Shown here piece after piece: positions 2,968-56,217 of a stretch of DNA of 64,000 nucleotides. Both the position numbers and the translations under genes were made by a program. The stretch is taken from NCBI GenBank assembly GCA_003151815.1, contig PLYN01000040.1, forward strand, positions 5,859 through 69,858, in the 5' to 3' direction. The notes under the pieces are model-generated. The model saw only the letters and a list, made by a program, of their open reading frames with translations. It was not told the origin of the DNA and searched no databases. Numbering within the stretch: the first letter of the stretch is position 1; each line of letters begins with the position of its first letter. Source of the DNA: Bacteroidota bacterium. GTDB taxonomy: Bacteria; Bacteroidota; Bacteroidia; 2-12-FULL-35-15.

Positions 2968-3687
2968 TTGCAGCTAAGTATAATCATACCATCTTTTAAA
3001 GGAGCTGAAGTTTTAAAAAACAACGTACCCGGCTTGATCAACTATTTTAAACAAAAAAATAGATTGTTCGAAATTATTATTGTTGATGATGGTTCTGACG
3101 ACGACGGTGCAACTGAAAAAGTTGCTATAGAATTGAATTGTTTGTTTTTGCAAAACGAAAAAAATTTAGGGAAAGGTGCGGCTGTGAGAAAGGGCATGCA
3201 ACATGCCAAGGGTGATTATAGGATTTTTACCGATGTAGATATACCTTTTGAGTATGATGCATTCGATCGGTTTTTACATTATTTAGAAGCGAAGGAGTTT
3301 GATGTTGTGATTGGCGATCGTACCTTGCCCGGTTCCAGCTATTTTACAGAAATATCACGATTGAGAAAAATTGGAAGCAATATTTTTTCCTTTATTGTCG
3401 GGCGTTTTGTAGCCGGAGGGCATTTTGATACACAATGCGGAATGAAAGGATTCAGAGCATTTGTAGCGAATGATTTATTTTCTGTCAGTAAGGTAAACGG
3501 GTTTGCTTTTGATGTAGAGTTGTTATACATTTCATTAAAACGAAATTATGATATAAAGCGTTTGCCTGTCGTGTTGAGGTGTCAGGAAGGCTCCAGCGTT
3601 AGTGTGCTTCGTCATGGTATCGGAATGCTTTTCGATCTTTATAAAATAAAATTGAATCATGTAAAAGGATTATACAATAAACATTAG
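2968..3687 (+). CDS. Family 2 glycosyltransferase (polyprenyl-phosphate sugar synthase-like)
   Basis: SIIIPSF...IIIVDDGSDD and a DxD-like FTDVDIPF motif; 239 aa, soluble; TTG start. Confidence 0.8.
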   Translation: MQLSIIIPSFKGAEVLKNNVPGLINYFKQKNRLFEIIIVDDGSDDDGATEKVAIELNCLFLQNEKNLGKGAAVRKGMQHAKGDYRIFTDVDIPFEYDAFDRFLHYLEAKEFDVVIGDRTLPGSSYFTEISRLRKIGSNIFSFIVGRFVAGGHFDTQCGMKGFRAFVANDLFSVSKVNGFAFDVELLYISLKRNYDIKRLPVVLRCQEGSSVSVLRHGIGMLFDLYKIKLNHVKGLYNKH

Positions 3688-3694
3688 TTATAAA

Positions 3695-4447
3695 ATGAGT
3701 CAACCAACCATATTAGATAAATTTCCGAAAAAAAGAATAGACCTTCCGGAAGCATATCAAAAAATATATAACCAGCACTACGTTATTAATCGGGAAGGAA
3801 AATCAGCCACCACTTCTTTGTCACAAAAATTAGAGTCCTGGATGCATAAAAAAGTGGCGCAGGATGTTCTAGGTAATAAAAAGCTATCTACACTTGAAAT
3901 AGGCGCAGGTACGCTCAACCAATTAAGATATGAGCCTGAACAAGAAATTTATGACATTGTAGAACCATTTACTGAGCTGTTTGAAAACTCTCCATTGTTA
4001 AAAAAAGTTCGCAATGTATATAAAGATATCAATGATTTAAACGACAATAAATACGATAGAATTACCACCATTGCTACATTTGAACATATCATGGATTTGC
4101 CTTTTGTTGTTGGAAAGGCGGCTACCTTATTGAACGAAAAAACAGGACATTTAAGAGTTGCCATACCTAACGAAGGAACCATCATGTGGAGACTCGGTAC
4201 TGAAATTACCGGATTTGAATTTAAAAAGAAATACGGTTTGGATTATCAAATTTTGATGCAATATGAGCATGTAAATACTGCTAATGAAATTGAACAAGTC
4301 CTTGAGCATTTCTTTGAAAAAACAAAATATTCTGTTTTTGGAATAAGCAAAAGCTTCGCCTTTTATCGATTTTATGATTGCAGTATTCCTCGAATGGAAA
4401 ATGTAAATAATTATTTTCTAAAGAAGAATATTTCAACGAAAGCGTAA
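3695..4447 (+). CDS. Class I SAM-dependent methyltransferase
   Basis: Motif I LEIGAGTLNQL; 7-nt gap from the GT2 gene. Confidence 0.6.
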   Translation: MSQPTILDKFPKKRIDLPEAYQKIYNQHYVINREGKSATTSLSQKLESWMHKKVAQDVLGNKKLSTLEIGAGTLNQLRYEPEQEIYDIVEPFTELFENSPLLKKVRNVYKDINDLNDNKYDRITTIATFEHIMDLPFVVGKAATLLNEKTGHLRVAIPNEGTIMWRLGTEITGFEFKKKYGLDYQILMQYEHVNTANEIEQVLEHFFEKTKYSVFGISKSFAFYRFYDCSIPRMENVNNYFLKKNISTKA

Positions 4448-4467: not shown

Positions 4468-6144
4468 ATGATAAACTTTTGCAACAGAAATAAAACTCAC
4501 TTATTGAATAGCCTTTCAGTTCTTGTTTTATTATTGGTTGCTGTTTTATATTATTCCGCTTGTTCGCAGGGGCAATTAGAAAATTTATTTAATTCCGATT
4601 CTCTTCAAATTGCCTCTATGTATAAGGATCTTTTTGTTGATAACAACAGTATCAATGGTTGGGGATTAAGTACTTCAGCATCTTTTTTTCCGGATATGTT
4701 TTTTTATTTCTTACTGAATTTTATTTTTGGAAGTTTTATTAAGGCAACAATTTATTATGGTTTTTTACAAATTATTATTTTAACCTTTTTGCTCAATAGG
4801 ATATATCGGCTTGTTAATCCTTCATTACCGGAATCATTAACAACTATTTCTATCCTTTTATTATCCTTATTTTTCCTTTGTAATATTCTTTTTGGATACA
4901 ATCTATATGCTTTTCTTTTAATCAGTAATAATTATCATGTTGGCACATTTAATTGTGCTTTGCTTTCCTATTGGCTATTATTATTGTATTTCAAAAACAA
5001 CAAATCAATTTATTTAATACTCTTGTTTGTTGTGCTTTTTTTAGCACAAATTTCTGATCGTTTATTTTTGGTTTTGTTTTACCTTCCTGTTGTAAGTATT
5101 ATTGTTATTGTTTGGATCACTAAGCCAAAGACAATAAAAATAGTGAGAATAGGATTGCTTTTTTTGCTTTTCATTTCTGCGATAGCAATTTCAGAATACG
5201 GACATTATAAAATAGCAACAAGTGGAATAGTAGAGTTTCCTAAATCAACTCTGACCAACTTTGGTTTTTTAACAGAAAAGGTTGGCAATACTGTTACTTT
5301 GGAATTTATTTGGTCTTTAATAAAAGATTACATTGATATTATTTCTGCTTTTAGTGTGCGTTCTATATTAATATCAATGATTGGAGTATCATTTATTTTA
5401 TCTGTTGTTGTTGCCATTAAAAATGTTAAGCGCATTCGTAAAACGAATGAAGAAATAACCGCATTTTATTATTATAATTGTTTTTCTGTTTTGTTTTTTA
5501 TCATCGTAATATTAGCGCCGCTTTCTCATTGGCACCATACAACAGAGAACGATTGGACGAGATTTTATTTTTCAGCATATATTTTAGCGCTATTTAATTT
5601 ACCAATTTGGATCGCTTTTTTATTTAAAAATAAGCTTCAGAAAATAATATTTTTCAACAAATTTATTTTGTTTGTTCTTGTAATGTCATTTGTTTTAACG
5701 GTTATAACATTGATTAAAAATGAGTCATTCACAAAATTCAGAGCCCTTCTGAATTATTATCCTGAAAATGTCAAAGAAATTGATAAAATGGCAGAACAAA
5801 ATAAACTTCACTATGGTGTTGCGGATTATTGGGACGCTAAGGTTATCAATATGTTTACCCGGAAAAATCTTCACGTATACGCTGTTCACTTTAGCATGTG
5901 TCCGTATGAGGTATTGGCCAATAACAATTGGTTTTATCAGTCTATTGAAAACAAAAATGAGGCACCCGTTTTTAATTTTATTGTAATGAATAGATTTGAG
6001 AGAAGAGATTACATCGAAGATAGTTTTTGTGATTCCATTGTTAAAATAAAAAGTAGAACTACTGAAATATGGAAAGTGCCTGATTTTTATTACATTCGGA
6101 CAGAATGGAAACCACAATTAATCGATAAACAGAAGAATAAATAG
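4468..6144 (+). CDS. Polytopic membrane protein, possibly a GT-C-fold glycosyltransferase
   Basis: 558 aa with many hydrophobic helices and a soluble C-terminal segment; located in the operon with the GT2 gene. Confidence 0.5.
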   Translation: MINFCNRNKTHLLNSLSVLVLLLVAVLYYSACSQGQLENLFNSDSLQIASMYKDLFVDNNSINGWGLSTSASFFPDMFFYFLLNFIFGSFIKATIYYGFLQIIILTFLLNRIYRLVNPSLPESLTTISILLLSLFFLCNILFGYNLYAFLLISNNYHVGTFNCALLSYWLLLLYFKNNKSIYLILLFVVLFLAQISDRLFLVLFYLPVVSIIVIVWITKPKTIKIVRIGLLFLLFISAIAISEYGHYKIATSGIVEFPKSTLTNFGFLTEKVGNTVTLEFIWSLIKDYIDIISAFSVRSILISMIGVSFILSVVVAIKNVKRIRKTNEEITAFYYYNCFSVLFFIIVILAPLSHWHHTTENDWTRFYFSAYILALFNLPIWIAFLFKNKLQKIIFFNKFILFVLVMSFVLTVITLIKNESFTKFRALLNYYPENVKEIDKMAEQNKLHYGVADYWDAKVINMFTRKNLHVYAVHFSMCPYEVLANNNWFYQSIENKNEAPVFNFIVMNRFERRDYIEDSFCDSIVKIKSRTTEIWKVPDFYYIRTEWKPQLIDKQKNK

Positions 6145-8474
6145 TGTTACAAAAATTAAAATATCGTATTTCGGAACGAGGCTTTTTGCTGACACTTGGA
6201 TTGGCTTTGTTTTTCCTGTTTTTATTTTACGGTAATCTTCTTCAACACCCAAATCAGGTTTATTTTGGTGCAAACGGTGATGGCTTACAGTCTTATTATT
6301 CGGCAGTATATCATGTTAAATACGATGATTCTTATTGGCACATGAATGGGATGAATTATCCTTATGGAGAACAGGTTTTTTTTACGGGCTGCCAACCTTT
6401 TGTCACCAACATCATAAAATGTATCAGTACGCTAGTGGATATTTCAGATTCTACTATTGGGATATTAAATATCATCATGCTTTTTTCCATAGTCTTGTCG
6501 GCTATTTTTCTCTATTTAATTTTTAAAGGTTTACAATTACCTGACGTATATTCCGCTATTGCTTCAGTTGCTGTAGCCTTTCTTTCCCCTCAAACAGAGC
6601 GTCTTGGAGGCCACTATTCATTGACATATCAGTTTGCGATTCCGCTTTTTTTGTTACTTCTGTTTAAATTTTATCAGAATCCATCAATAAAAAAATCACT
6701 ATTAATTAGCGTCCTTGTTTTTTTTATGGCAGGCACTCATTTTTATTTTTATGGTTTTTTTGCGCTTATCGCTTCATTTTATTGGATGTTTTTATTTTTC
6801 TCCAAAGAAGGAGAATTTGGTAAAATAACATTTTTAATAAAGCATTATTTCATTCAAATAATTACGCCCTATTTACTTTTTAGATTCATTGTATTTTTAA
6901 TTGATAATGTTCAGGACAGAACAAATAATCCCTGGGGTTATCTGGAGTATGTTTCTAATCTGACAGGTGTATTTTTTCCTGTAGGAAAACCCTATTCTTT
7001 TATTTTTGAAACGGTCATAAAGCCTGTATATCCTGATTGGGAAGGCTATTCCTTTGTTGGAATTGTCGCCTCTATAGTTACAGTTGGTATTGGAATAGCA
7101 ATGATCCGAAAATTATTGAAGAAGCAATTGAAGTCGCTTTTTTTTGTTACTGATAACATCCTGTTAAATTCATTTTTTTGGGCAGGGATTATTGCACTTT
7201 TATTGTCGTTCGGGTTTCCATTTATTATTAAAGGCTGTGGTGGATTATTTAATTATGCCGGACTTTTAAAGCAGATGCGCGGAATTGCCCGTTTTTCCTG
7301 GGTATTTTATTATATCATTAATATTATTGCTTTTTATAAAATATTTCAATGGACATCTGACAAGAAAAATGTTGTGAAATATTTCTGGATTGGGATCTCT
7401 TTATTTTTTGTTTGTTACGATGCTTATACTATGTCAATCAATAAACAAGACAGATTTAATAATCGTATTGAGCAGTTGGAAGATACGAAAAACCAGTTGC
7501 CGGAGGACAAGTGGATAAACCAAATAAACCTCGATAAATACCAAGCTATAATTACTTTACCTTATTTTCATGTGGGCTCGGAAAATATTTGGATGAATAC
7601 CCAATCTGAAATTGTAAAAGATGTATTTATTGCTTCCATGAAAACCGGATTACCAACTACATCTCTTATTCTTAGTAGGGTTTCATTAGGACAAACCTAT
7701 AAAAATATTCAAATAGTAAAAGAGCCATATCGCCCTTTGGAGATTGTAAATGATTTTAAAAACGCGAAACCTTTTTTAGTATTGGTGCGCGAAAAGGAAT
7801 TAAATAACAATGAACTCAGGTTGTTAAAGAAATGTAAAATGATAATAGAAACTCCACGTTATTCTATTTATGAATTAGAAGTGAGTACACTGCAACATAT
7901 AATTGATAACTTGTTTGATGATGTTATGGAAGAATCAAGTAAAATAAAGACCTTTGATATAGATGGATTTAAATATACCGATTCGATAAAAAGTTTTGTG
8001 TATAATGGATTTGAAAATAATTTATCTCCCGGTTGCTTTGTTGGAAACGGTTGTTATGAAGGTAAAATAAAAGATTATAACGTTTTATTCAAAGGCTCGT
8101 TACCTGATTTTAAAGCCGATACAACCTATACTATTTCTTTTTGGATGGATAATTTTACCACCGACGTATATCCACGTTCAACTGTAGAAATTGCTTTTTT
8201 AGATTCTACAGGTACTGTTTACGGAACAGATTATTTTGAAGCCGGGAAAAATTTTTGTGTATTGGATGGTAATTGGGCATTAATTGAACGAACTTTTCAG
8301 TTAAAAAATAAAGCAGATCAATTGACGGTGACACTTTGGAATCAAAATATTGTTGATGATAAAAAAATGTTTAGAGCAGATGAATTACTTATTAAACCGA
8401 ATGGAATCAGCATTTACAAGAACATTTCAATTAATAAAGTTTTTAAAAACAATAGAACGTATATAAGGCGATAA
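6144..8474 (+). CDS. Polytopic membrane protein with a ~350-aa soluble C-terminal domain (YfhO/ArnT-like GT-C candidate)
   Basis: 776 aa. GTG start overlaps the upstream stop by 1 nt. The first loop contains GANGDGLQSYY (Asp-containing loop as in GT-C enzymes). Confidence 0.5.
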   Translation: MLQKLKYRISERGFLLTLGLALFFLFLFYGNLLQHPNQVYFGANGDGLQSYYSAVYHVKYDDSYWHMNGMNYPYGEQVFFTGCQPFVTNIIKCISTLVDISDSTIGILNIIMLFSIVLSAIFLYLIFKGLQLPDVYSAIASVAVAFLSPQTERLGGHYSLTYQFAIPLFLLLLFKFYQNPSIKKSLLISVLVFFMAGTHFYFYGFFALIASFYWMFLFFSKEGEFGKITFLIKHYFIQIITPYLLFRFIVFLIDNVQDRTNNPWGYLEYVSNLTGVFFPVGKPYSFIFETVIKPVYPDWEGYSFVGIVASIVTVGIGIAMIRKLLKKQLKSLFFVTDNILLNSFFWAGIIALLLSFGFPFIIKGCGGLFNYAGLLKQMRGIARFSWVFYYIINIIAFYKIFQWTSDKKNVVKYFWIGISLFFVCYDAYTMSINKQDRFNNRIEQLEDTKNQLPEDKWINQINLDKYQAIITLPYFHVGSENIWMNTQSEIVKDVFIASMKTGLPTTSLILSRVSLGQTYKNIQIVKEPYRPLEIVNDFKNAKPFLVLVREKELNNNELRLLKKCKMIIETPRYSIYELEVSTLQHIIDNLFDDVMEESSKIKTFDIDGFKYTDSIKSFVYNGFENNLSPGCFVGNGCYEGKIKDYNVLFKGSLPDFKADTTYTISFWMDNFTTDVYPRSTVEIAFLDSTGTVYGTDYFEAGKNFCVLDGNWALIERTFQLKNKADQLTVTLWNQNIVDDKKMFRADELLIKPNGISIYKNISINKVFKNNRTYIRR

Positions 8475-8484
8475 GATTATTGGA

Positions 8485-9966: not shown

Positions 9967-10917
9967 ATGAAAAAAATATTTACACTAGTATTGATAGTAA
10001 TGCTAACAGTAAATTTATTTGCACAAGTGCCGCAAAAAATGAGTTATCAATCGGTAGTGAGAGATACTGCTGGTAAATTGGTCTTAACCCATGCTGTGGG
10101 ATTACAAATAAGCATATTGAAGGGTAATGCGAATGGTAATGCAGTGTTTGTAGAAACACATAATTTATCTACCAATGCCAATGGATTAATGAGTTTAGAA
10201 ATAGGTGGGGGAACACAAGTAGGTGCAAATAGTTTTGCAAGTATTAATTGGAGTACAGGTCCTTATTTTATAAAAACAGAAACGGATCCAACCGGTGGAA
10301 CGAACTATACCATTTCAGGTACCAGCGAATTATTAAGTGTGCCTTATGCTTTGTTTGCAGCTAACGGCGGAGTTACCGGTCCGCAAGGGCCTCCGGGGAT
10401 AGGCGGTTTTGCCCACTATATAGGCGAATTGTTTGGGGGAGGTATAGTTGCTAATGTTTGGAAAGAAGCAGGAGTGGAACACGCGTTAATAGCTTCTTTA
10501 AATGATTTAAGTACCGGAATAGCATGGAGTAATTTGGATACAACATTAATTGGTCCAACTGCAAGTAGTGCTATTAATGGACAGACCAATACAACTGCTA
10601 TTATCGCGCAAGCTGGGCATACTACCAGCCCAGCTGCCTTATGCGATGCATATACAGCTGGGGGCTTTAGTGATTGGTACTTACCTTCAATTTGGGAGTT
10701 AGAAAAATTTTTTATCTCTGCTTTTGAGATTAATACTGCGCTGGAAAATGATGGGAATAATTCAACTGTCGGATTTCAGCAGATAAACGATCCTTACTAT
10801 TGGAGTTCAACTGAAGGCGGGAATACCAGTGCATGGAATCAGAACTTTAACAGTGGTCATGCGAGCAACTCCGGTAAAAACTGGCTTTATTTAGTTAGGG
10901 CCGTTCGGAGAATTTAG
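9967..10917 (+). CDS. Secreted protein with a C-terminal DUF1566 (Lcl C-terminal-like) domain
   Basis: Signal peptide; short collagen-like GPQGPPGIGG; GFSDWYLPSIWELEKF resembles the DWRLPT..EL core of DUF1566. Confidence 0.6.
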   Translation: MKKIFTLVLIVMLTVNLFAQVPQKMSYQSVVRDTAGKLVLTHAVGLQISILKGNANGNAVFVETHNLSTNANGLMSLEIGGGTQVGANSFASINWSTGPYFIKTETDPTGGTNYTISGTSELLSVPYALFAANGGVTGPQGPPGIGGFAHYIGELFGGGIVANVWKEAGVEHALIASLNDLSTGIAWSNLDTTLIGPTASSAINGQTNTTAIIAQAGHTTSPAALCDAYTAGGFSDWYLPSIWELEKFFISAFEINTALENDGNNSTVGFQQINDPYYWSSTEGGNTSAWNQNFNSGHASNSGKNWLYLVRAVRRI

Positions 10918-10925
10918 ATACTTTA

Positions 10926-11015
10926 TTAAGATCGCTCTTCGCAGATGATGCAAAGGTTCACAATTGTATCAACAGCTTTTTGCATAACAGATTCTTGAAA
11001 TCGGCTTTACCATGA
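10926..11015 (-). pseudogene. Orphan duplicate of the pepT 3' end
   Basis: The minus strand encodes ...VMQKAVDTIVNLCIICEERS*, versus the pepT C-terminus DMQKAVETIVNLCIIWEERS*. 10945-10988 matches 11674-11717 with 4 mismatches at an offset of 729 nt. Confidence 0.75.
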
Positions 11016-11025
11016 GAATGTTTCT

Positions 11026-11325
11026 CTACCCTTTCATTTTTTTAGGGTTCTGGCGGCTATCGAAAATATCAGTTATGTATATAGTTCGGTCTATTACACG
11101 ATATACAATTTTGTAATGGGATTCGATTACTCTTCGGTGATTGAGTCCTAAATGTTCAAGATATTCTTCCCTTCTTCCGGAAGATGGATTTTTAATAAGT
11201 TTATCTGCGCGATCCAATATACTGTTACGTATAATTTCCAAAGTTTCGATATTTACATGTGGGGCAATAAATTCTAAAGATTCTGTTAGACTTTTTAATG
11301 CCTGTTCTGTATAAACTAATTTCAT
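11026..11325 (-). CDS. Type II toxin, ParE/RelE family
   Basis: 99 aa. 4-nt overlap with the upstream small gene. The C-terminal YKIVYRVIDRTIYITDIFDSRQNP pattern is typical of ParE/RelE toxins. Confidence 0.7.
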   Translation of the reverse strand: MKLVYTEQALKSLTESLEFIAPHVNIETLEIIRNSILDRADKLIKNPSSGRREEYLEHLGLNHRRVIESHYKIVYRVIDRTIYITDIFDSRQNPKKMKG

Positions 11326-11549
11326 TTTCTGATTAGCTTATTTGTTTGCCGAATGATTTCAGCTCTACTTAATACCCGTCCAACCTTTATATCTTCCTCT
11401 GACCGAATTGCCCTTCGGGTAAGCTTTTCCCGTAAGACAGTATCAAGGGTGGTTTTTTTTAGCAGAGCCTTAATGGCTTTTAATATGGTCAAATCCCTTT
11501 CCCTTTCTATAAGCTCTTTTAACTCTGTTTTGATAGTTATTGCACTCAT
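11322..11549 (-). CDS. Cognate antitoxin (small helical protein)
   Basis: 75 aa, directly upstream of and overlapping the toxin gene. Confidence 0.55.
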   Translation of the reverse strand: MSAITIKTELKELIERERDLTILKAIKALLKKTTLDTVLREKLTRRAIRSEEDIKVGRVLSRAEIIRQTNKLIRK

Positions 11550-11654
11550 GATTTTTAATTTTTAGTTTTCCCAAAGTTAACGATTTTTTACCGAAAATTA
11601 TTATCTTATTAGGTGATTTATTAGGTGATATTTTTATATCGTCTCGCAAATCTC

Positions 11655-12896
11655 CTAACTCCTTTCTTCCCAAATGATACAAAGGTTCACAATTGTTTCA
11701 ACAGCCTTTTGCATATCCTGAACCGATACCCATTCATGCTTTGAATGGAAAGCATGTTCGCCTGCAAAAATATTCGGACAAGGTAAACCCATATACGAAA
11801 ATCGTGAGCCATCGGTACCTCCTCTGATGCTTGATAATACAGGTTCAACGCCCGCTCTGCGAATTGCTTCCAAAGCATTATTTATGATCTCCGGGTTTTT
11901 ATCCAACACTTGTTTCATGTTGCGGTATTGCTGTTTCACAATAAAATCATATTTAGATTTCGAATATTTTTTGATGACACCTTCAGTAATATCTTTTAAA
12001 AAATCTTCTTGTGTTTTTAATGTTTCTTCTTCAAATGCACGAATAATAAATTGAATGGATGTTTCTTCAATGCCTCCTGAAATGCTTACAGGATGGATAA
12101 ATCCTTGCATTTTATCGGTGCTTTCCGGACTCATTTTATTTTTTGGCAATGTGTTAATTATTTCACTCGCAATTTTTATTGCACTCTCCATTTTGTTTTT
12201 TGCAAATCCGGGATGTGTGCTTACACCATGAATATTTATGGTGACAGCATCGGCTGAAAAGGTTTCATTCTCGAGGTGTCCCAACTCTTCACCATCAATG
12301 GTATATGCATAATTAGCTGCAATTTTTCGTAGGTCTGCTTTATCAGCACCACGTCCGATCTCTTCATCAGGAGTGAATAATATTTTGATCGTTCCATGAA
12401 TTATTTCCGGATGTTTCATTAAGTGATGGGCTGCATCCATGATCTCTGCCAGTCCTGCTTTGTTATCTGCGCCAAGCAAAGTAGTACCATCCGTTGTAAT
12501 AATATCATTGCCAATTTGTTTCAGCAAAGAAGGATGTTCACTGGTTTTAATTATTTGTGTTTTATCGTTGGGCAATACAATATCTTTACCATCGTAATTC
12601 TTGTGAACTTGTGGGTTCACGCCTTTCCCGGAGCAGTCGGGTGAAGTATCCATGTGAGAACAAAAACAAATCACAGGGACTTTTTTGTTAGAATTGCCGG
12701 GAATAGCAGCATATACATAACCATTCTCATCCATGTGTGCATCGTTCATGCCCATTTCCAAAAGTTCTTTTACCAAAATACGACCTAAGTCTTTTTGTTT
12801 TTCAGTGGATGGACATGTTGTAGAATTGGGATCGCTTTGCGTATCAATTTTTACATATCGTAAAAAGCGTTCGGTAACAGTATGGTTGATTTTCAT
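11655..12896 (-). CDS. pepT: Peptidase T (tripeptide aminopeptidase, M20B)
   Basis: 413 aa. ERFLRYVKIDTQSD, CSHMDTSPD and GADNKAG motifs are characteristic of PepT. Confidence 0.9.
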   Translation of the reverse strand: MKINHTVTERFLRYVKIDTQSDPNSTTCPSTEKQKDLGRILVKELLEMGMNDAHMDENGYVYAAIPGNSNKKVPVICFCSHMDTSPDCSGKGVNPQVHKNYDGKDIVLPNDKTQIIKTSEHPSLLKQIGNDIITTDGTTLLGADNKAGLAEIMDAAHHLMKHPEIIHGTIKILFTPDEEIGRGADKADLRKIAANYAYTIDGEELGHLENETFSADAVTINIHGVSTHPGFAKNKMESAIKIASEIINTLPKNKMSPESTDKMQGFIHPVSISGGIEETSIQFIIRAFEEETLKTQEDFLKDITEGVIKKYSKSKYDFIVKQQYRNMKQVLDKNPEIINNALEAIRRAGVEPVLSSIRGGTDGSRFSYMGLPCPNIFAGEHAFHSKHEWVSVQDMQKAVETIVNLCIIWEERS

Positions 12897-20295: not shown

Positions 20296-20468
20296 AGTTC
20301 AAAGTTGGAAAGTTTAAAGTTGCAGCTCATTATTAAACTCGTTTGTCATTTCTACTTTTAGGGACAGAACTTTAAACTTTGAACTTTTCAACTTTAAACT
20401 AAATATTACCCAAAACATTAAACTTTCCAACTTTGAACTTTAAACTAAATACAACTTTAAACTAAAGA
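20290..20468. repeat. Word hairpin of the GTTTAAAGTT/AACTTTAAAC family
   Basis: Left arm gtttaaagttcaaagttggaaagtttaaagttg (20290-20322). Right arms aactttaaactttgaacttttcaactttaaact (20368-20400) and 20419-20468. The thiolase stop TAA (20293-20295) lies inside the left arm. Confidence 0.75.
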
Positions 20469-26897: not shown

Positions 26898-27020
26898 GTT
26901 TAAAGTTCAAAGTTGAAAAGTTTAAAGTTTTGTTACGATATGATTTTCAATTTTCCATTTTATTTTTACTTCTCCCTAGTCTTCAACTTTGAACTTTAAA
27001 CTAACAAACTTTAAACTAAA
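26898..27020. repeat. Word hairpin, GTTTAAAGTT/AACTTTAAAC family
   Basis: gtttaaagttcaaagttgaaaagtttaaagttt (26898-26930) faces tcaactttgaactttaaactaacaaactttaaactaaa (26983-27020). Confidence 0.75.
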
Positions 27021-27023
27021 ATT

Positions 27024-27422
27024 ATGACTAAAATAGAAAGCGAAAAAGTTGAGATCAACAATTCTGCTGAAAATATTTATAACTACCTAAGTAATTTCAG
27101 TAATTTCGAAATGTTAATGCCCCCACAGGTTACCAACTGGGAAGCGACTTCCGAAGATTGTTCATTTACCATTAATGGGATGGCAACCATCGGAATGAAA
27201 ATAGTTGAAAAAATTCCTTTCTCAAAAATAATCATCAGCTCGAATGGAAAAGTTCCTTTCGATTTTCAATTATTTGTATATATTACTGAAAAAGGCGCTA
27301 CCAGTTCAGTTGGACAAATTACATTTGAGTCCAATTTAAATCCGATGATGAAAATGATGGTGGAGAAACCGCTAAGTAACTTTTTTAATATGTTGGCTAA
27401 AAAAATGGCGGATATTAAATAA
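27024..27422 (+). CDS. SRPBCC-superfamily protein
   Basis: 132 aa; size and secondary-structure pattern fit a START/Bet v1-like fold. Weak call. Confidence 0.5.
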   Translation: MTKIESEKVEINNSAENIYNYLSNFSNFEMLMPPQVTNWEATSEDCSFTINGMATIGMKIVEKIPFSKIIISSNGKVPFDFQLFVYITEKGATSSVGQITFESNLNPMMKMMVEKPLSNFFNMLAKKMADIK

Positions 27423-27570
27423 GTTTAAAGTTTAAAGTACATGATAATTACCTCAAATATATAGTCCCAACAGGACTTTTAAAACCAAGTTATAAATTGC
27501 TCTTTGTAGACAATTTGTTTATATTCAGAATCAGCCAACTTTAAACTTTGAACTTTCCAACTTTGAACTA
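27423..27570. repeat. Word hairpin, GTTTAAAGTT/AACTTTAAAC family, between convergent genes
   Basis: gtttaaagtttaaagta (27423-27439) faces caactttaaactttgaactttccaactttgaacta (27536-27570). The birA stop (27568-27570) lies inside the right arm. Confidence 0.7.
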
Positions 27571-28326
27571 AAATTTGATCTCATTCAAATAAAACTCCTT
27601 TACTTCATCCGATCTTAACTGCACTTGTAGTTTTCCAAAAGTAGAAACACCAATTATTTTTCCTTCAAAAGTATCGTTGTTAGAAGTATAATTTTTCCAT
27701 TCGTTCAGCTGATAAAGTTTTTGTAAATACTCCGTATTAATACTTTCCAGTTTATTGGCTTTTAACTGTAGATAACGGGCTTCCATAAACTCACAAAGAC
27801 GTTCAATAAATTGTATTAAATCATACGTTGCATTAGTTAACAGAGCAATTGATGTAGCGTTAATGTTTGTTTTAAAAGTGGTCTGGTTTATATTTAATCC
27901 AATGCCTGTAACGGTATTTTTTATAGTATTTTCACGCAACGTATTTTCAATTAAGATACCGGCAATTTTCTTATTGCCAACGTATATATCATTGGGCCAT
28001 TTGATCTTAATATTCTGTGCTTTATCAGATGATTTTAAAGTTTCTGCCATTAAGTCAGAAACAGCTAAGCAAGTGATTTTGTTAAGTAAAAATTGCTTAT
28101 CGGCTTGCAAAAAAGTAGGATATAAAATATAGCTCAAAGTAGCATTTTTATTAGGCTCGCTATCCCATGTGTTACCACGTTGGCCTCTTCCATTTTGTTG
28201 GTCGAATGTATAAATTAGTGTTCCATCATGTGGCTTAATTTGGCGTAGCAATTCACTGGCATAACTGTTGGTAGAGTCTATTGATTTTAAAACAATAGCG
28301 TTTTGCCCTATAAATAATGTTTTCAT
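27568..28326 (-). CDS. birA: Biotin--[acetyl-CoA-carboxylase] ligase (group I, no HTH)
   Basis: QQNGRGQRGNTW (GRGRxG-type biotin-binding loop); 252 aa. Confidence 0.85.
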   Translation of the reverse strand: MKTLFIGQNAIVLKSIDSTNSYASELLRQIKPHDGTLIYTFDQQNGRGQRGNTWDSEPNKNATLSYILYPTFLQADKQFLLNKITCLAVSDLMAETLKSSDKAQNIKIKWPNDIYVGNKKIAGILIENTLRENTIKNTVTGIGLNINQTTFKTNINATSIALLTNATYDLIQFIERLCEFMEARYLQLKANKLESINTEYLQKLYQLNEWKNYTSNNDTFEGKIIGVSTFGKLQVQLRSDEVKEFYLNEIKF

Positions 28327-54011: not shown

Positions 54012-55016
54012 ATGAGTTTACCAACTATAAAATATTGTCCGGGAACATTAGCAGAAGGATTTACAACATACAGTACAACATGTCTGCGAAGTACGTTTAA
54101 TGGAAAAAAAGTAAGTCATGTATTGCCGTTTGAATCACCACAACAAAGTGAAGAAATAGTAGCGTTGTTTATGGAAAATATGAAACACATTTCTATTTCA
54201 GGTGTGCAACAGAAACTAAGTTTGGTGCAGGAGAAAAACTTACTTCGCTTAACGAATGAAAATGAACAAGGCACGCATATTTTAAAACCAATTCCATCTT
54301 TGTTGAAAAAAGCCGGTATGCTTCCGGCAAATGAACACCTCAGTATGCAAATAGCACGACAGGTATATGGAATAAACACGGCTGAAAATGCTATGATATT
54401 TTTTAAGGACGGCACACCTGCATATATTACCAAACGCTTTGATGTAAAGCCAGATGGTGGTAAGTTGGGTAAAGAAGATTTTGCAACATTGGCTGGTAAA
54501 ACCAAAAATATTTCAAATGAAAATTATAAGTACGAATTCAGTTATGAAGAATTAGGTTTACTCATTCAGAAAAATGTTCCGGCATGGGTAGTAGAAATTG
54601 AAAAATATTTTTCGTTGGTACTTTTCAATTTTCTTTTCAGCAATGGCGATGCACACCTGAAAAATTTTTCACTTTTAGAAACTTCAAAAGGAGATTATAA
54701 GCTCAGTCCTGCTTATGATTTGATAAATTCAAGGATGCACGTGGACGATAGCGACTTTGCTTTTAATAAAGGATTATTTGCTGATGGTTTCAAGTCTGAA
54801 AAATTCAAAAAGAACAATCACCCATATAAAAAAGATTTTGCGGTGTTTGGAAAAAGAATAGGTATGCAGGAAAATAGGATGGAGCGGATAATTCAGTCAT
54901 TTATAGAAAAACAGAAAATGGTTGAAATACTCATAAATCATTCATTTTTGGATGATGCGGGCAAGAGAGGATATTTATTGCAATACAAAACGCGAAGGAA
55001 TTTTTTAATTGGCTAA
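54012..55016 (+). CDS. hipT: HipA-family Ser/Thr kinase lacking the N-subdomain (HipT-like toxin)
   Basis: Gly-rich loop S61-I-S63-GVQQK; catalytic loop NGDAHLKNFSLL. The ATG directly follows the hipS-like stop. Confidence 0.8.
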   Translation: MSLPTIKYCPGTLAEGFTTYSTTCLRSTFNGKKVSHVLPFESPQQSEEIVALFMENMKHISISGVQQKLSLVQEKNLLRLTNENEQGTHILKPIPSLLKKAGMLPANEHLSMQIARQVYGINTAENAMIFFKDGTPAYITKRFDVKPDGGKLGKEDFATLAGKTKNISNENYKYEFSYEELGLLIQKNVPAWVVEIEKYFSLVLFNFLFSNGDAHLKNFSLLETSKGDYKLSPAYDLINSRMHVDDSDFAFNKGLFADGFKSEKFKKNNHPYKKDFAVFGKRIGMQENRMERIIQSFIEKQKMVEILINHSFLDDAGKRGYLLQYKTRRNFLIG

Positions 55017-55099
55017 TATAATAATTGATTATTGGTATAAAGATTAGGAATGAAAAAATGTTTTAAGTAATCCTTTAAAGCACTTTGTATTTCGATTGA

Positions 55100-55146
55100 T
55101 TAAATTTGCCCCAATTATTTATATCATAACAAATTTTTAAAAATCA
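55100..55146 (+). repeat. Left copy of an imperfect direct repeat bracketing the EamA gene (contains TAAATTTG)
   Basis: ttaaatttgccccaattatttatatc is identical at 55100-55125 and 56171-56196. Weaker similarity continues for a further ~60 nt. Confidence 0.75.
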
Positions 55147-55211: not shown

Positions 55212-56129
55212 ATGAAACACATAAAAAAGAATGGCGTATTTCAAGCATTTATAGCCGCTTTTCTATTTAGTGCCAGTGCTCCATTATCCAAATTATTGCT
55301 CAATGGAATTTCTCCTATTATGCTTGCTGGATTAATTTATTTTGGAAGTGGGATTGCTCTTTTAACAATTAAAGGTGTTAAAATATTATTAAATAAACAG
55401 CAATTGAATAATGACTTTAACCGAAGAGAAATATTATATCTAATAGGAAGCGTATTGATTGGAGGGGTAATTGCTCCCATTATATTAATGATAAGTTTAA
55501 AAAATAGTCCGGCAGCTACTGCTTCACTTCTATTAAACTTTGAATGTGTCTCAACAACATTTTTAGCGTTTTTATTTTTTAGGGAAAAAATAGGAAAAAG
55601 AATTTGGATTTCTGTATTCTTAATAACAGTTGCAAGTATTTTATTGACAATAGATTTAAAAGATAATTGGGGATTCTCTTTAGGTTCAGTAGGAATAATT
55701 TTTGCAAGCATTTTATGGGGATTGGATAATAATTTTACAAGGAATATATCTGAGAAAGACCCATTGACTATTGTGGGAATTAAAGGATTGGGAGCTGGCA
55801 TAATTTCAATAGTCATATCACGGATATACAATAACCCAATTCCAGTAATGAATAATATTTTATTGGCAATGTTATTAGGATTATTTTGTTACGGTTTAAG
55901 TATCGTTTCTTTTGTTTTAGCACTCAGGAGGCTTGGAAGTTCAAGGACAAGCATAATTTTTGGAACAGCTCCATTTATTGGAGTAATAGTATCATTTTTA
56001 ATATTTAAGGAGATACCCAATATTTATTTTTTTATTTCTTTACCACTCATGATTTATGGAACATACCTTATGTTAACTGAAAACTATGAACTTCAAAAAA
56101 AAGCAATTAGCCATAGTTCGCTCCAATAA
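55212..56129 (+). CDS. EamA/DMT-superfamily transporter
   Basis: 305 aa; about ten TM helices arranged as two EamA-like halves. Confidence 0.75.
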   Translation: MKHIKKNGVFQAFIAAFLFSASAPLSKLLLNGISPIMLAGLIYFGSGIALLTIKGVKILLNKQQLNNDFNRREILYLIGSVLIGGVIAPIILMISLKNSPAATASLLLNFECVSTTFLAFLFFREKIGKRIWISVFLITVASILLTIDLKDNWGFSLGSVGIIFASILWGLDNNFTRNISEKDPLTIVGIKGLGAGIISIVISRIYNNPIPVMNNILLAMLLGLFCYGLSIVSFVLALRRLGSSRTSIIFGTAPFIGVIVSFLIFKEIPNIYFFISLPLMIYGTYLMLTENYELQKKAISHSSLQ

Positions 56130-56170
56130 ACGAAATTTTAAAAAATTAGACAATCACTTGGCAACAGTTA

Positions 56171-56217
56171 TTAAATTTGCCCCAATTATTTATATCCTCG
56201 CAAATTTTTTAAAATCA
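56171..56217 (+). repeat. Right copy of the direct repeat bracketing the EamA gene
   Basis: See the 55100-55146 entry. Confidence 0.75.

Follow-up and report, generated by a model that had tools for sequence, protein, structure and literature searches.

The window considered in this study is a stretch of 64,000 nucleotides (nt) from a contig (PLYN01000040.1) of a Bacteroidota bacterium, a peat metagenome scaffold of low depth (about 4-5x in Logan contigs). My concern is with a small toxin-antitoxin (TA) cassette at the very end of pepT, the gene for peptidase T, and with a second copy of that gene's terminus, found on the far side of the cassette. All three lie on the reverse strand. The gene itself (11655-12896) is intact: it encodes 413 amino acids of the M20 family (Pfam Peptidase_M20 and M20_dimer), and residues 1-413 align with those of its orthologues. 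Its last 20 codons and TAG stop occupy 11655-11717. The second copy, to which I will refer as the orphan, consists of 20 codons and a TAA stop at 10926-10988, in frame with that stop of its own and with another in-frame stop upstream of it. The conserved mobile cassette that lies between the two occupies 11021-11617, its full extent in the closest copies from other genomes (L224 and L225; such handles denote loci outside the window).

Two ends of pepT around a small cassette

The two ends form a direct repeat of 63 nt, identical at 51 of 63 positions and offset by 729 nt, within which a core (10936-10986 against 11665-11715) agrees at 46 of 51 positions (90%). The longest identical run is 17 nt and contains the palindrome ACAATTGT. 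The window holds these two copies only, 10926 being the sole other position on the forward strand with at least 40 ungapped matches (of 63) to the pepT end. The local alignment score of the pair is 38.5, as compared to a maximum of 12 for shuffled sequences. An earlier note on this DNA had the last ~90 nt of pepT occurring twice, 729 nt apart; the duplication and its spacing stand, but the length measured is 63 nt. A recount reproduces its 4 differences in the 44 positions of 10945-10988, and the peptides it quoted for the two ends are correct. The similarity was also said to decay at about 11015-11020, a few nt from the stop of the toxin gene. It ends instead at 10988: 19 of the 27 sites in 10989-11015 are mismatched, and the 37 nt at 10989-11025, when compared with pepT with gaps allowed, have no similarity to it (p 0.62). 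The orphan therefore ends 37 nt short of the toxin stop.

This spacer between toxin stop and orphan has no similarity to the flanks of other cassettes either. A second spacer of 37 nt (11618-11654, reverse strand) lies directly 3' of the pepT stop and is shared with no other cassette copy. The insert between the two ends (10989-11654) is 666 nt long and consists of the cassette and 37 nt on each side, much as the earlier note had pictured it: an insertion of nothing but a TA pair at the very end of pepT, between two copies of the terminus.

An independent Logan contig (10660-11034) holds together the end of the neighboring gene (for a lipoprotein with an Lcl_C domain, described below), the orphan, the 37 nt unrelated to pepT and the toxin stop. 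Because this contig carries the orphan with both its neighbors, the orphan is physically detached from the body of pepT in the reads. A second Logan contig spans 11018-12007, and a run from a second sample covers 11359-11689, the junction of pepT and cassette. Alternative junctions were sought in the Logan contigs of four runs, and none was found.

The toxin gene (11026-11325, reverse strand) encodes a predicted protein of 99 amino acids belonging to the ParE family (PF05016; 34.4 bits against a cut-off of 23, E 3e-8). The best 21 PDB matches to its AlphaFold model (pLDDT 92) include solved ParE toxins (TMq 0.72-0.81); among the matches are 5ceg, 8c24, 6xrw, 5czf, 7r5a, 3kxe, 9w3a and 7ycs, the last two of which, PfiT (9w3a) and PrpT (7ycs), I take to be members of ParE. 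The model compares less well with RelE, YoeB, YafQ and HigB (0.34-0.65), and since it does, the ParE label holds at the level of the predicted fold, as opposed to a toxin of the RelE, YoeB, YafQ or HigB type. The candidate antitoxin gene (11322-11549, reverse strand; 75 amino acids) lies upstream of the toxin gene and overlaps it by 4 nt (ATGA). It is conserved together with the toxin in L081-L084 and in L223, and it is not recognized as ParD or as a member of any other described family, having no match in Pfam (up to E 10) and none in NCBIfam.

A TAACTTTG box (11572-11579, reverse strand) lies 23-30 nt upstream of the antitoxin ATG and is invariant in four of five aligned cassettes and throughout a further cassette alignment. 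It fits TAnnTTTG, the established -7 promoter consensus of Bacteroidetes. A scan for sigma-70 promoters and for terminators gave nothing above shuffled sequences. The left edge of the cassette is marked by a tandem 12-mer (ATCACCTAATAA twice, 11607-11630, reverse strand), which is present as a single copy in L225. Together with the left 37 nt and the pepT stop codon it can form an imperfect hairpin (11607-11658; DNA fold z -2.3, forward strand). A similar string (ATATCAC...GATAATA...TAATTT) occurs downstream of pepT in the related locus L162, yet there is no cassette there. The whole spacer after pepT, comprising the outer 37 nt and 21 nt further in, was considered as a native 3' flank of the gene, given its weak similarity to the region downstream of pepT in L162 (p 0.01), but this was dropped because the inner 21 nt belong to the cassettes of L224 and L225 as well.

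The cassette in other genomes and the surroundings of pepT

The cassette occurs in at least 11 other Bacteroidota contexts at 82-87% nucleotide identity (blastn). Homology stops at the toxin stop on one side and 38-68 nt upstream of the antitoxin ATG on the other (14 nt in L084), so that the core common to all the closest copies is 11027-11587 (in L084 only from 11563). What lies beyond is unrelated from one place to the next: the cassette is found downstream of leuS, upstream of thrS, beside an ATPase gene, inside a TA-rich island, and elsewhere. It is, in short, a discrete travelling unit of about 600 nt, consisting of promoter, antitoxin and toxin.

Long direct repeats around the cassette are not peculiar to the window. 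In a screen of the family, the 450 nt upstream of the antitoxin were aligned with the 450 nt downstream of the toxin at loci with homologous toxins (48-91%), a score of at least 35 counting as a repeat. Repeats were found at 16 of 72 genome loci, as compared to 4 of 371 shifted pseudo-cassettes from the same loci and 2 of 269 unrelated loci. A metagenome set, with a few loci in common with the genome set, gave 9 of 57 against 0 of 136 controls. Repeat lengths range over 50-435 nt and identities over 78-100%, and the sequence is specific to the locus.

In L223 (toxin 87%, cassette 84%) the cassette lies just upstream of thrS, and the first 83-85 nt of that gene are duplicated (2513-2595 against 3219-3303), the orphan thrS start having suffered two 1-nt deletions and thus two frameshifts. 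In L084 (82%) the last ~90 nt of an ATPase-like gene are present four times (913-1010, 1696-1790, 4313-4406 and 6688-6772): attached to the gene itself, 12 nt beyond the ParE toxin and, in two cases, after HigA-like genes; with HigA-like, BrnT/A-like and two ParE-like TA modules between the copies, the whole makes an array of displaced gene ends. A 79-nt repeat surrounds an open reading frame and the cassette in L081 (91%), the end of a convergent lipoprotein gene is duplicated in L136 and a gene start in L090, and gene ends or starts are duplicated in L246, L266 and L248. Flanking repeats were sought and not found at L082/L302, L304, L225, L226, P0123 and P0126. Because the same lineage of cassettes adjoins different genes (thrS, leuS, the ATPase gene and others), with the ends of those genes duplicated, no single attachment site serves it; the repeats differ from locus to locus or are absent.

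In eight loci of the Marinilabiliales and Prolixibacteraceae type (L113, L132, L156, L116, L138, L122, L141 and L119), cassettes stand among multi-copy repeats resembling repetitive extragenic palindromic (REP) sequences, which in L132 and L119 end in ...TGCGAAGCA. Genes like those for REP-associated tyrosine transposases (RAYT) or of IS200 adjoin the cassettes in L122, L141 and L119, and L116 has a 64-nt repeat, spaced at ~740 nt, between its toxin-like genes, resembling a cassette array. The cassettes at these REP-like-rich loci may be chance insertions between repeats.

The pepT gene itself was compared with its relatives in reference genomes, of which the best 80 of 563 loci were fetched; the 4 kb that follow pepT in each were screened for duplicated ends, and the genes there carry no annotation. 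The nearest relatives (L162, L163-165 and L166) are 89-91% identical in amino acid sequence and 84% in nucleotide sequence, and a search of 5.8 billion clusters gave no pepT closer than 91% in amino acid sequence. Upstream, all of them have the order of genes found in the window: an HD-domain protein, a short-chain dehydrogenase, two unnamed genes, DUF6495 and pepT. Downstream they have three different sets of genes. Each has a single pepT end and no TA pair, as do L001-L016, and no cassette was found beside pepT in any of the best 80 of 563 reference loci, counted apart from the nearest relatives. The comparison proposed in the earlier note thus yields the uninterrupted arrangement that it sought, in relatives no nearer than 84%, and relatives that lack the TA pair while keeping both copies, which it had thought would tell against an insertion, were not encountered: the nearest ones lack the pair and the second copy alike.

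Because the genes downstream of pepT differ in all the nearest relatives, pepT borders on a chromosomal segment that varies. In the window the segment contains PMT_2, the Lcl_C gene, the orphan and the cassette, and its far border is a DUF6311 gene (6144-8477, forward strand; Pfam), which is collinear with L166 at 77.6% nucleotide identity. The gene for the Lcl_C-domain lipoprotein (9967-10917, forward strand; PF07603) converges on the cassette, its stop being 8 nt from that of the orphan. It is absent from beside pepT in every relative, and its homologues are at most 48% identical, none of them near pepT or a TA pair. Its G+C content is 0.40-0.42, against 0.27-0.35 in its neighbors, and its closest homologues in reference genomes are 47-48% identical.

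Duplicated pepT ends were found in only three of the best 80 of 563 loci, all alphaproteobacterial, where the end recurs ~600 nt downstream of pepT: in a metagenome-assembled genome (MAG), in Afipia massiliensis DSM 17498 and in an Afipia MAG. The pairs lie at 7118-7242 and 7837-7961 in L052, at 7151-7233 and 7830-7916 in L067, and at 7206-7232 and 7822-7848 in L077. The Afipia insert is a gene for a secreted protein of ~190 amino acids, whose ATG overlaps the pepT stop. In L052 the differences between the two ends are evenly spread, 7/7/7 over the codon positions. The pepT genes of Bradyrhizobium and Afipia, among the alphaproteobacterial loci L024 and L032-L080, are 66-69% identical to that of the window, as are many Bacteroidota orthologues, a likeness that hints at an old transfer across phyla.

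Differences between the copies

The two pepT ends in the window differ at 12 nt, distributed 2/2/8 over codon positions 1/2/3, and in the core all five differences fall on position 3. Ten codons are affected, 7 of them synonymously, and the synonymous switches (attached/orphan) include Arg AGG/CGA, Ser AGT/TCT and the stop TAG/TAA. In the other three codons the amino acid is replaced (D>V, E>D and W>C), the Trp lost in the last case being invariant among orthologues. When the changes are polarized with the nearest relatives as outgroups, 11 of the 12 fall on the branch of the orphan, 8 of these in synonymous codons and 3 non-synonymous, as compared to the 28% synonymous expected under neutral decay (p about 0.003).

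The peptide of the orphan (…NLCIIxEERS) is typical of the clade to which the window's pepT belongs and of no other, and among the best 120 pepT homologues CIIWEERS is confined to it. The earlier note had asked which of the copies stands nearer to orthologous pepT ends. It is the attached copy, which matches L162, L163 and L166 at 54-56 of 63 positions (the orphan at 45-51 of 63) and shares AGG AGT TAG with L162 and L166, but if three substitutions in the orphan are put down to decay, the margin does not exceed the noise. In the core the copies agree with each other at 90% of positions and with relatives at 78-90% (counted by hand), while over the full length the copies share 51 of 63 positions, against 54-56 of 63 for the attached copy and the relatives.

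A bias of the same kind is seen across the family. When the coding repeats of the window and nine other loci (12 pairs of copies) are pooled, the differences fall 19/14/78 on codon positions 1/2/3, 70% of them on the third, as compared to the ~45% that would result if one copy were constrained and the other free. In L084 the orphans at 1696-1790 and 6688-6772 differ from the attached end by 0/0/7 and 0/1/10, respectively.

Since its differences are mostly synonymous, the orphan looks like the end of another, once functional allele of pepT rather than a local duplicate left to drift: one that probably served through most of its past as the working end of pepT in a related lineage and later gained a few disabling changes. 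Scans of GTDB genomes with degenerate patterns for a pepT end with CGA/TCN/TAA, the presumptive donor of this allele, found none.

Origin of the arrangement

The reading I prefer, with a probability of about one half, is that the cassette was inserted without a recombinase, that a gene end was displaced by the recombination machinery of the host, and that the outcome was kept by addiction. The cassette would have entered beside pepT by insertion with long target duplication, leaving the target gene intact; that such an insertion duplicates 50-200 nt of its target and spares the gene is suggested because the defined ends of the cassette lie beside different genes, each with its own terminus duplicated. 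Observed are the anatomy of the locus, a cassette that is discrete and mobile, relatives with neither cassette nor second copy, the bias towards synonymous differences and the return of such repeats in the cassette family; the recombination that would have followed, and the stabilizing role of addiction, are what I infer. Because these differ as alleles do, a second layer of events is suggested, in which the cassette was moved or kept by homologous recombination, anchored in pepT, among relatives that had diverged, and an illegitimate joint, or a joint within the duplicated segment, displaced a gene end, so as to leave one pepT end from the donor and one from the recipient. Two routes could lead there. 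In the first, a fragment comprising a pepT end and the cassette would be joined by homology within pepT and by an illegitimate joint upstream of the resident end. In the second, two ordinary crossovers would bring in a unit that was duplicated beforehand, one of them within pepT and the other joining the orphan of the donor with the pepT end of the recipient. Both would suit a site with one conserved flank, and each would leave one donor and one recipient copy. Addiction would then hold the arrangement, since a recombinant deleted for the cassette, whether the repeats crossed over or an empty allele took the place of the filled one, would lose the antitoxin gene along with it, be deprived of its labile antitoxin and be poisoned. 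The persistence and enrichment of the cassette would follow from this.

Several points weigh against this reading. Toxicity, its neutralization and addiction are here predicted from sequence. No donor allele and no strain with a pepT closer than 91% has been found, and neither the order of events nor the native copy can be derived. The repeat in the window is short, and its synonymous bias rests on 12 differences. The copies of the core seem as close to each other as, or closer than, most relatives are to them, and this closeness fits a true local duplication with the 3' arm exchanged later. As for the family, the shifted control positions are more often coding than are the surroundings of TA pairs, some of the loci positive for repeats are rich in REP-like multi-copy repeats, and some of the metagenome loci duplicate genome loci.

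The simplest alternative is a strict insertion with long target duplication, in which a single insertion within the lineage duplicated the last 63 nt of the resident pepT and the copies diverged in place. It would account well for an architecture like that of restriction-modification (R-M) systems, in which a stop codon is spanned by repeats of more than 30 bp and mobility genes are lacking, and for a 51-nt core that is 90% identical. The orphan thrS start of L223, with its two frameshifts, looks like a decaying local duplicate, and the even 7/7/7 of alphaproteobacterial pepT-end orphans is what such a process would give. An orphan free to change should do so evenly, however, and that of the window has 8 changes in synonymous codons to 3 non-synonymous and has kept R-S-stop despite switches between codon families; the pooled share of third positions is likewise 70%, not ~45%. 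Finally, the copies are less alike (51 of 63) than the attached copy is like relatives at the level of species that have no insertion (54-56 of 63). I therefore consider duplication in place unlikely as the whole account.

A broader proposal, likewise speculative and more probably wrong than right, is that one family of ParE-type TA cassettes in Bacteroidota consists of self-sufficient mobile units that need no recombinase, insert at the ends of housekeeping genes, use the resulting duplications of 50-200 nt as portable homology arms and block their own loss through addiction. The body of the gene would be the arm on one side and the duplicated end the arm on the other, so that any relative possessing the gene could receive the cassette by host recombination, regardless of what follows that gene. 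ParE toxins are gyrase poisons that lead to double-strand breaks, and such breaks may promote the insertion; the proposal echoes in this the idea of DNA breakage behind the long target duplications of R-M systems.

Site-specific integration is still less likely, whether of a mini-element mobilized in trans or of an island whose integrase and other genes have been deleted, leaving a relic akin to a cis-mobilizable element (CIME). Islands are classically recognized by direct repeats of a gene's 3' end, the 17-nt run with its palindrome could be a core, and pepT ends are duplicated in the three alphaproteobacterial loci too. As the earlier note had remarked, however, there is no recombinase: no gene for one of the tyrosine or serine type is found in the insert or among the annotated genes within ~5 kb. 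Nor is there a tRNA gene or a match to an Rfam element at the site. The insert is essentially the cassette and twice 37 nt, and with other genes having their own ends duplicated, over lengths of 50-435 nt, there is no common attachment site. The only duplicated pepT ends in the 4 kb screened downstream of pepT in the best 80 of 563 loci enclose three inserts of ~600 nt, though with the downstream genes unannotated an integrase island could lie there. The likeness to the integration of an island in miniature that the earlier note drew captures the anatomy, then, and not the likely mechanism, given the lack of an integrase, a tRNA gene and an attC-like hairpin, a longest shared run of 17 nt, and the several target genes.

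Two other devices were tried and rejected. An integron cassette is contradicted by 10920-11030, which has no significant attC-like fold on either strand (z -0.24 and -0.10), and by the lack of an IntI-like gene within ~5 kb. A diversity-generating retroelement is contradicted by mismatches that are not specific to adenine and by the lack of a reverse transcriptase nearby.

The assembly of a metagenome might have joined two strains by mistake, and the low depth of the scaffold would invite this, but it is very improbable given that in one Logan contig the orphan is already joined to the end of the Lcl_C gene on one side and, across the 37 nt, to the toxin stop on the other, that the longest shared run of 17 nt is shorter than the k-mers used by assemblers, and that an orphan pepT end exists in the genome of an isolate as well (Afipia massiliensis DSM 17498). 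That the orphan is what remains of a second, decayed pepT paralogue mostly overwritten by the cassette, a possibility raised in the earlier note and favored by a reading frame that ends in its own stop, can be given scarcely any credence: nothing upstream of the 63 nt resembles pepT in a gapped or an ungapped comparison, tandem pepT genes occur in none of 84 relative loci, and the same pattern with other genes at other loci speaks for a process linked to the cassette.

Recombinase-free insertion followed by displacement of a gene end has its nearest parallels in two bodies of work. Nobusato et al., in 2000 (Gene 259:99), are said to have described insertion with long target duplication of R-M gene complexes. 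Such systems are flanked by direct repeats of 30-420 bp of local target sequence and have no mobility genes; a start or stop codon often lies within the repeats, the target gene is intact, the arrangement is enriched over control genes, and the enzyme responsible is unknown (Furuta, Abe & Kobayashi 2010, PMC2853133). The locus in the window is alike in having an addiction-type module, no mobility gene and a repeat of 63 nt (longer than 30 bp) that is not dispersed. It is unlike in that its cargo is a type II TA pair, and also in its repeats: those of the published R-M cases are nearer to each other than to the allele at the empty site, while those here and at several sister loci differ like alleles under purifying selection. 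No paper in the literature searched applies long target duplication to type II TA pairs.

The other parallel is the displacement of C-terminal ends, with arrays of orphans, that Jackson et al. reportedly found in Rhs loci in 2009. For the displaced 3' ends in Rhs loci and in those of type VI secretion systems (T6SS), an origin by homology-facilitated illegitimate recombination is proposed (Kirchberger et al. 2017, PMC5361080). As in the effector-immunity loci of Rhs, contact-dependent inhibition (CDI) and T6SS, a functional 3' end is kept here, the older end is pushed downstream and the copies differ as alleles do; in L084 the four copies, separated by TA modules, even make a true array. There would also be, as I see it, the same homology anchor on one side, the same lack of an integrase and a cargo that cannot be lost without death. 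The differences are that both copies are the same terminus of a housekeeping gene, pepT, with no polymorphic toxin domain and immunity gene, that the cargo, an autonomous TA cassette, has no relation to pepT, and that the window has a single orphan.

Islands inserted by integrases at gene 3' ends, and CIMEs, share with the locus the direct repeats of a gene's 3' end and a gene left intact, but the locus lacks an integrase, a tRNA and a common attachment site, and its insert measures only ~0.67 kb. In sedentary chromosomal integrons, TA cassettes stabilize the arrays against deletion. They too are small cassettes with promoters of their own between direct repeats, where addiction opposes deletion from repeat to repeat; the repeats here are unlike theirs, however, being the ends of coding genes and not attC (z -0.1 to -0.24), with no IntI nearby. 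The locus is best filed as having the architecture of a long target duplication and the allelic content of a gene-end displacement, both carried by a type II TA cassette.

How two-gene TA cassettes move without a transposase or integrase has been largely unexplained so far. The window and its sister loci suggest that host recombination may be the vehicle and addiction the anchor, which would extend to type II TA pairs a phenomenon described only for R-M systems. They also provide a signature that can be searched for: a small cassette adjoined by the orphaned end or start of a gene, with differences biased towards synonymous ones. This could serve to date and trace gene flow at the borders of hotspots and to examine whether addiction modules influence the set of recombinants that survive. 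The single locus is of moderate weight in this regard, the pattern across the family of higher weight.

Two other sets of repeats in the window may be mentioned. The first is a 48-nt direct repeat (55099-55146 against 56170-56217, 92% identical, 1071 nt apart) that brackets a gene for an EamA-type transporter (55212-56129). Gene and repeat lie immediately downstream of the gene for a HipA-like kinase toxin (54012-55016), and here too a small insertion may be flanked by a long repeat. The second is a family of 46-nt A/T-rich repeats (AACTTTAAACTTTGAACTTT...), both tandem and dispersed, at 20365-20456, 26982-27027 and 27534-27579.

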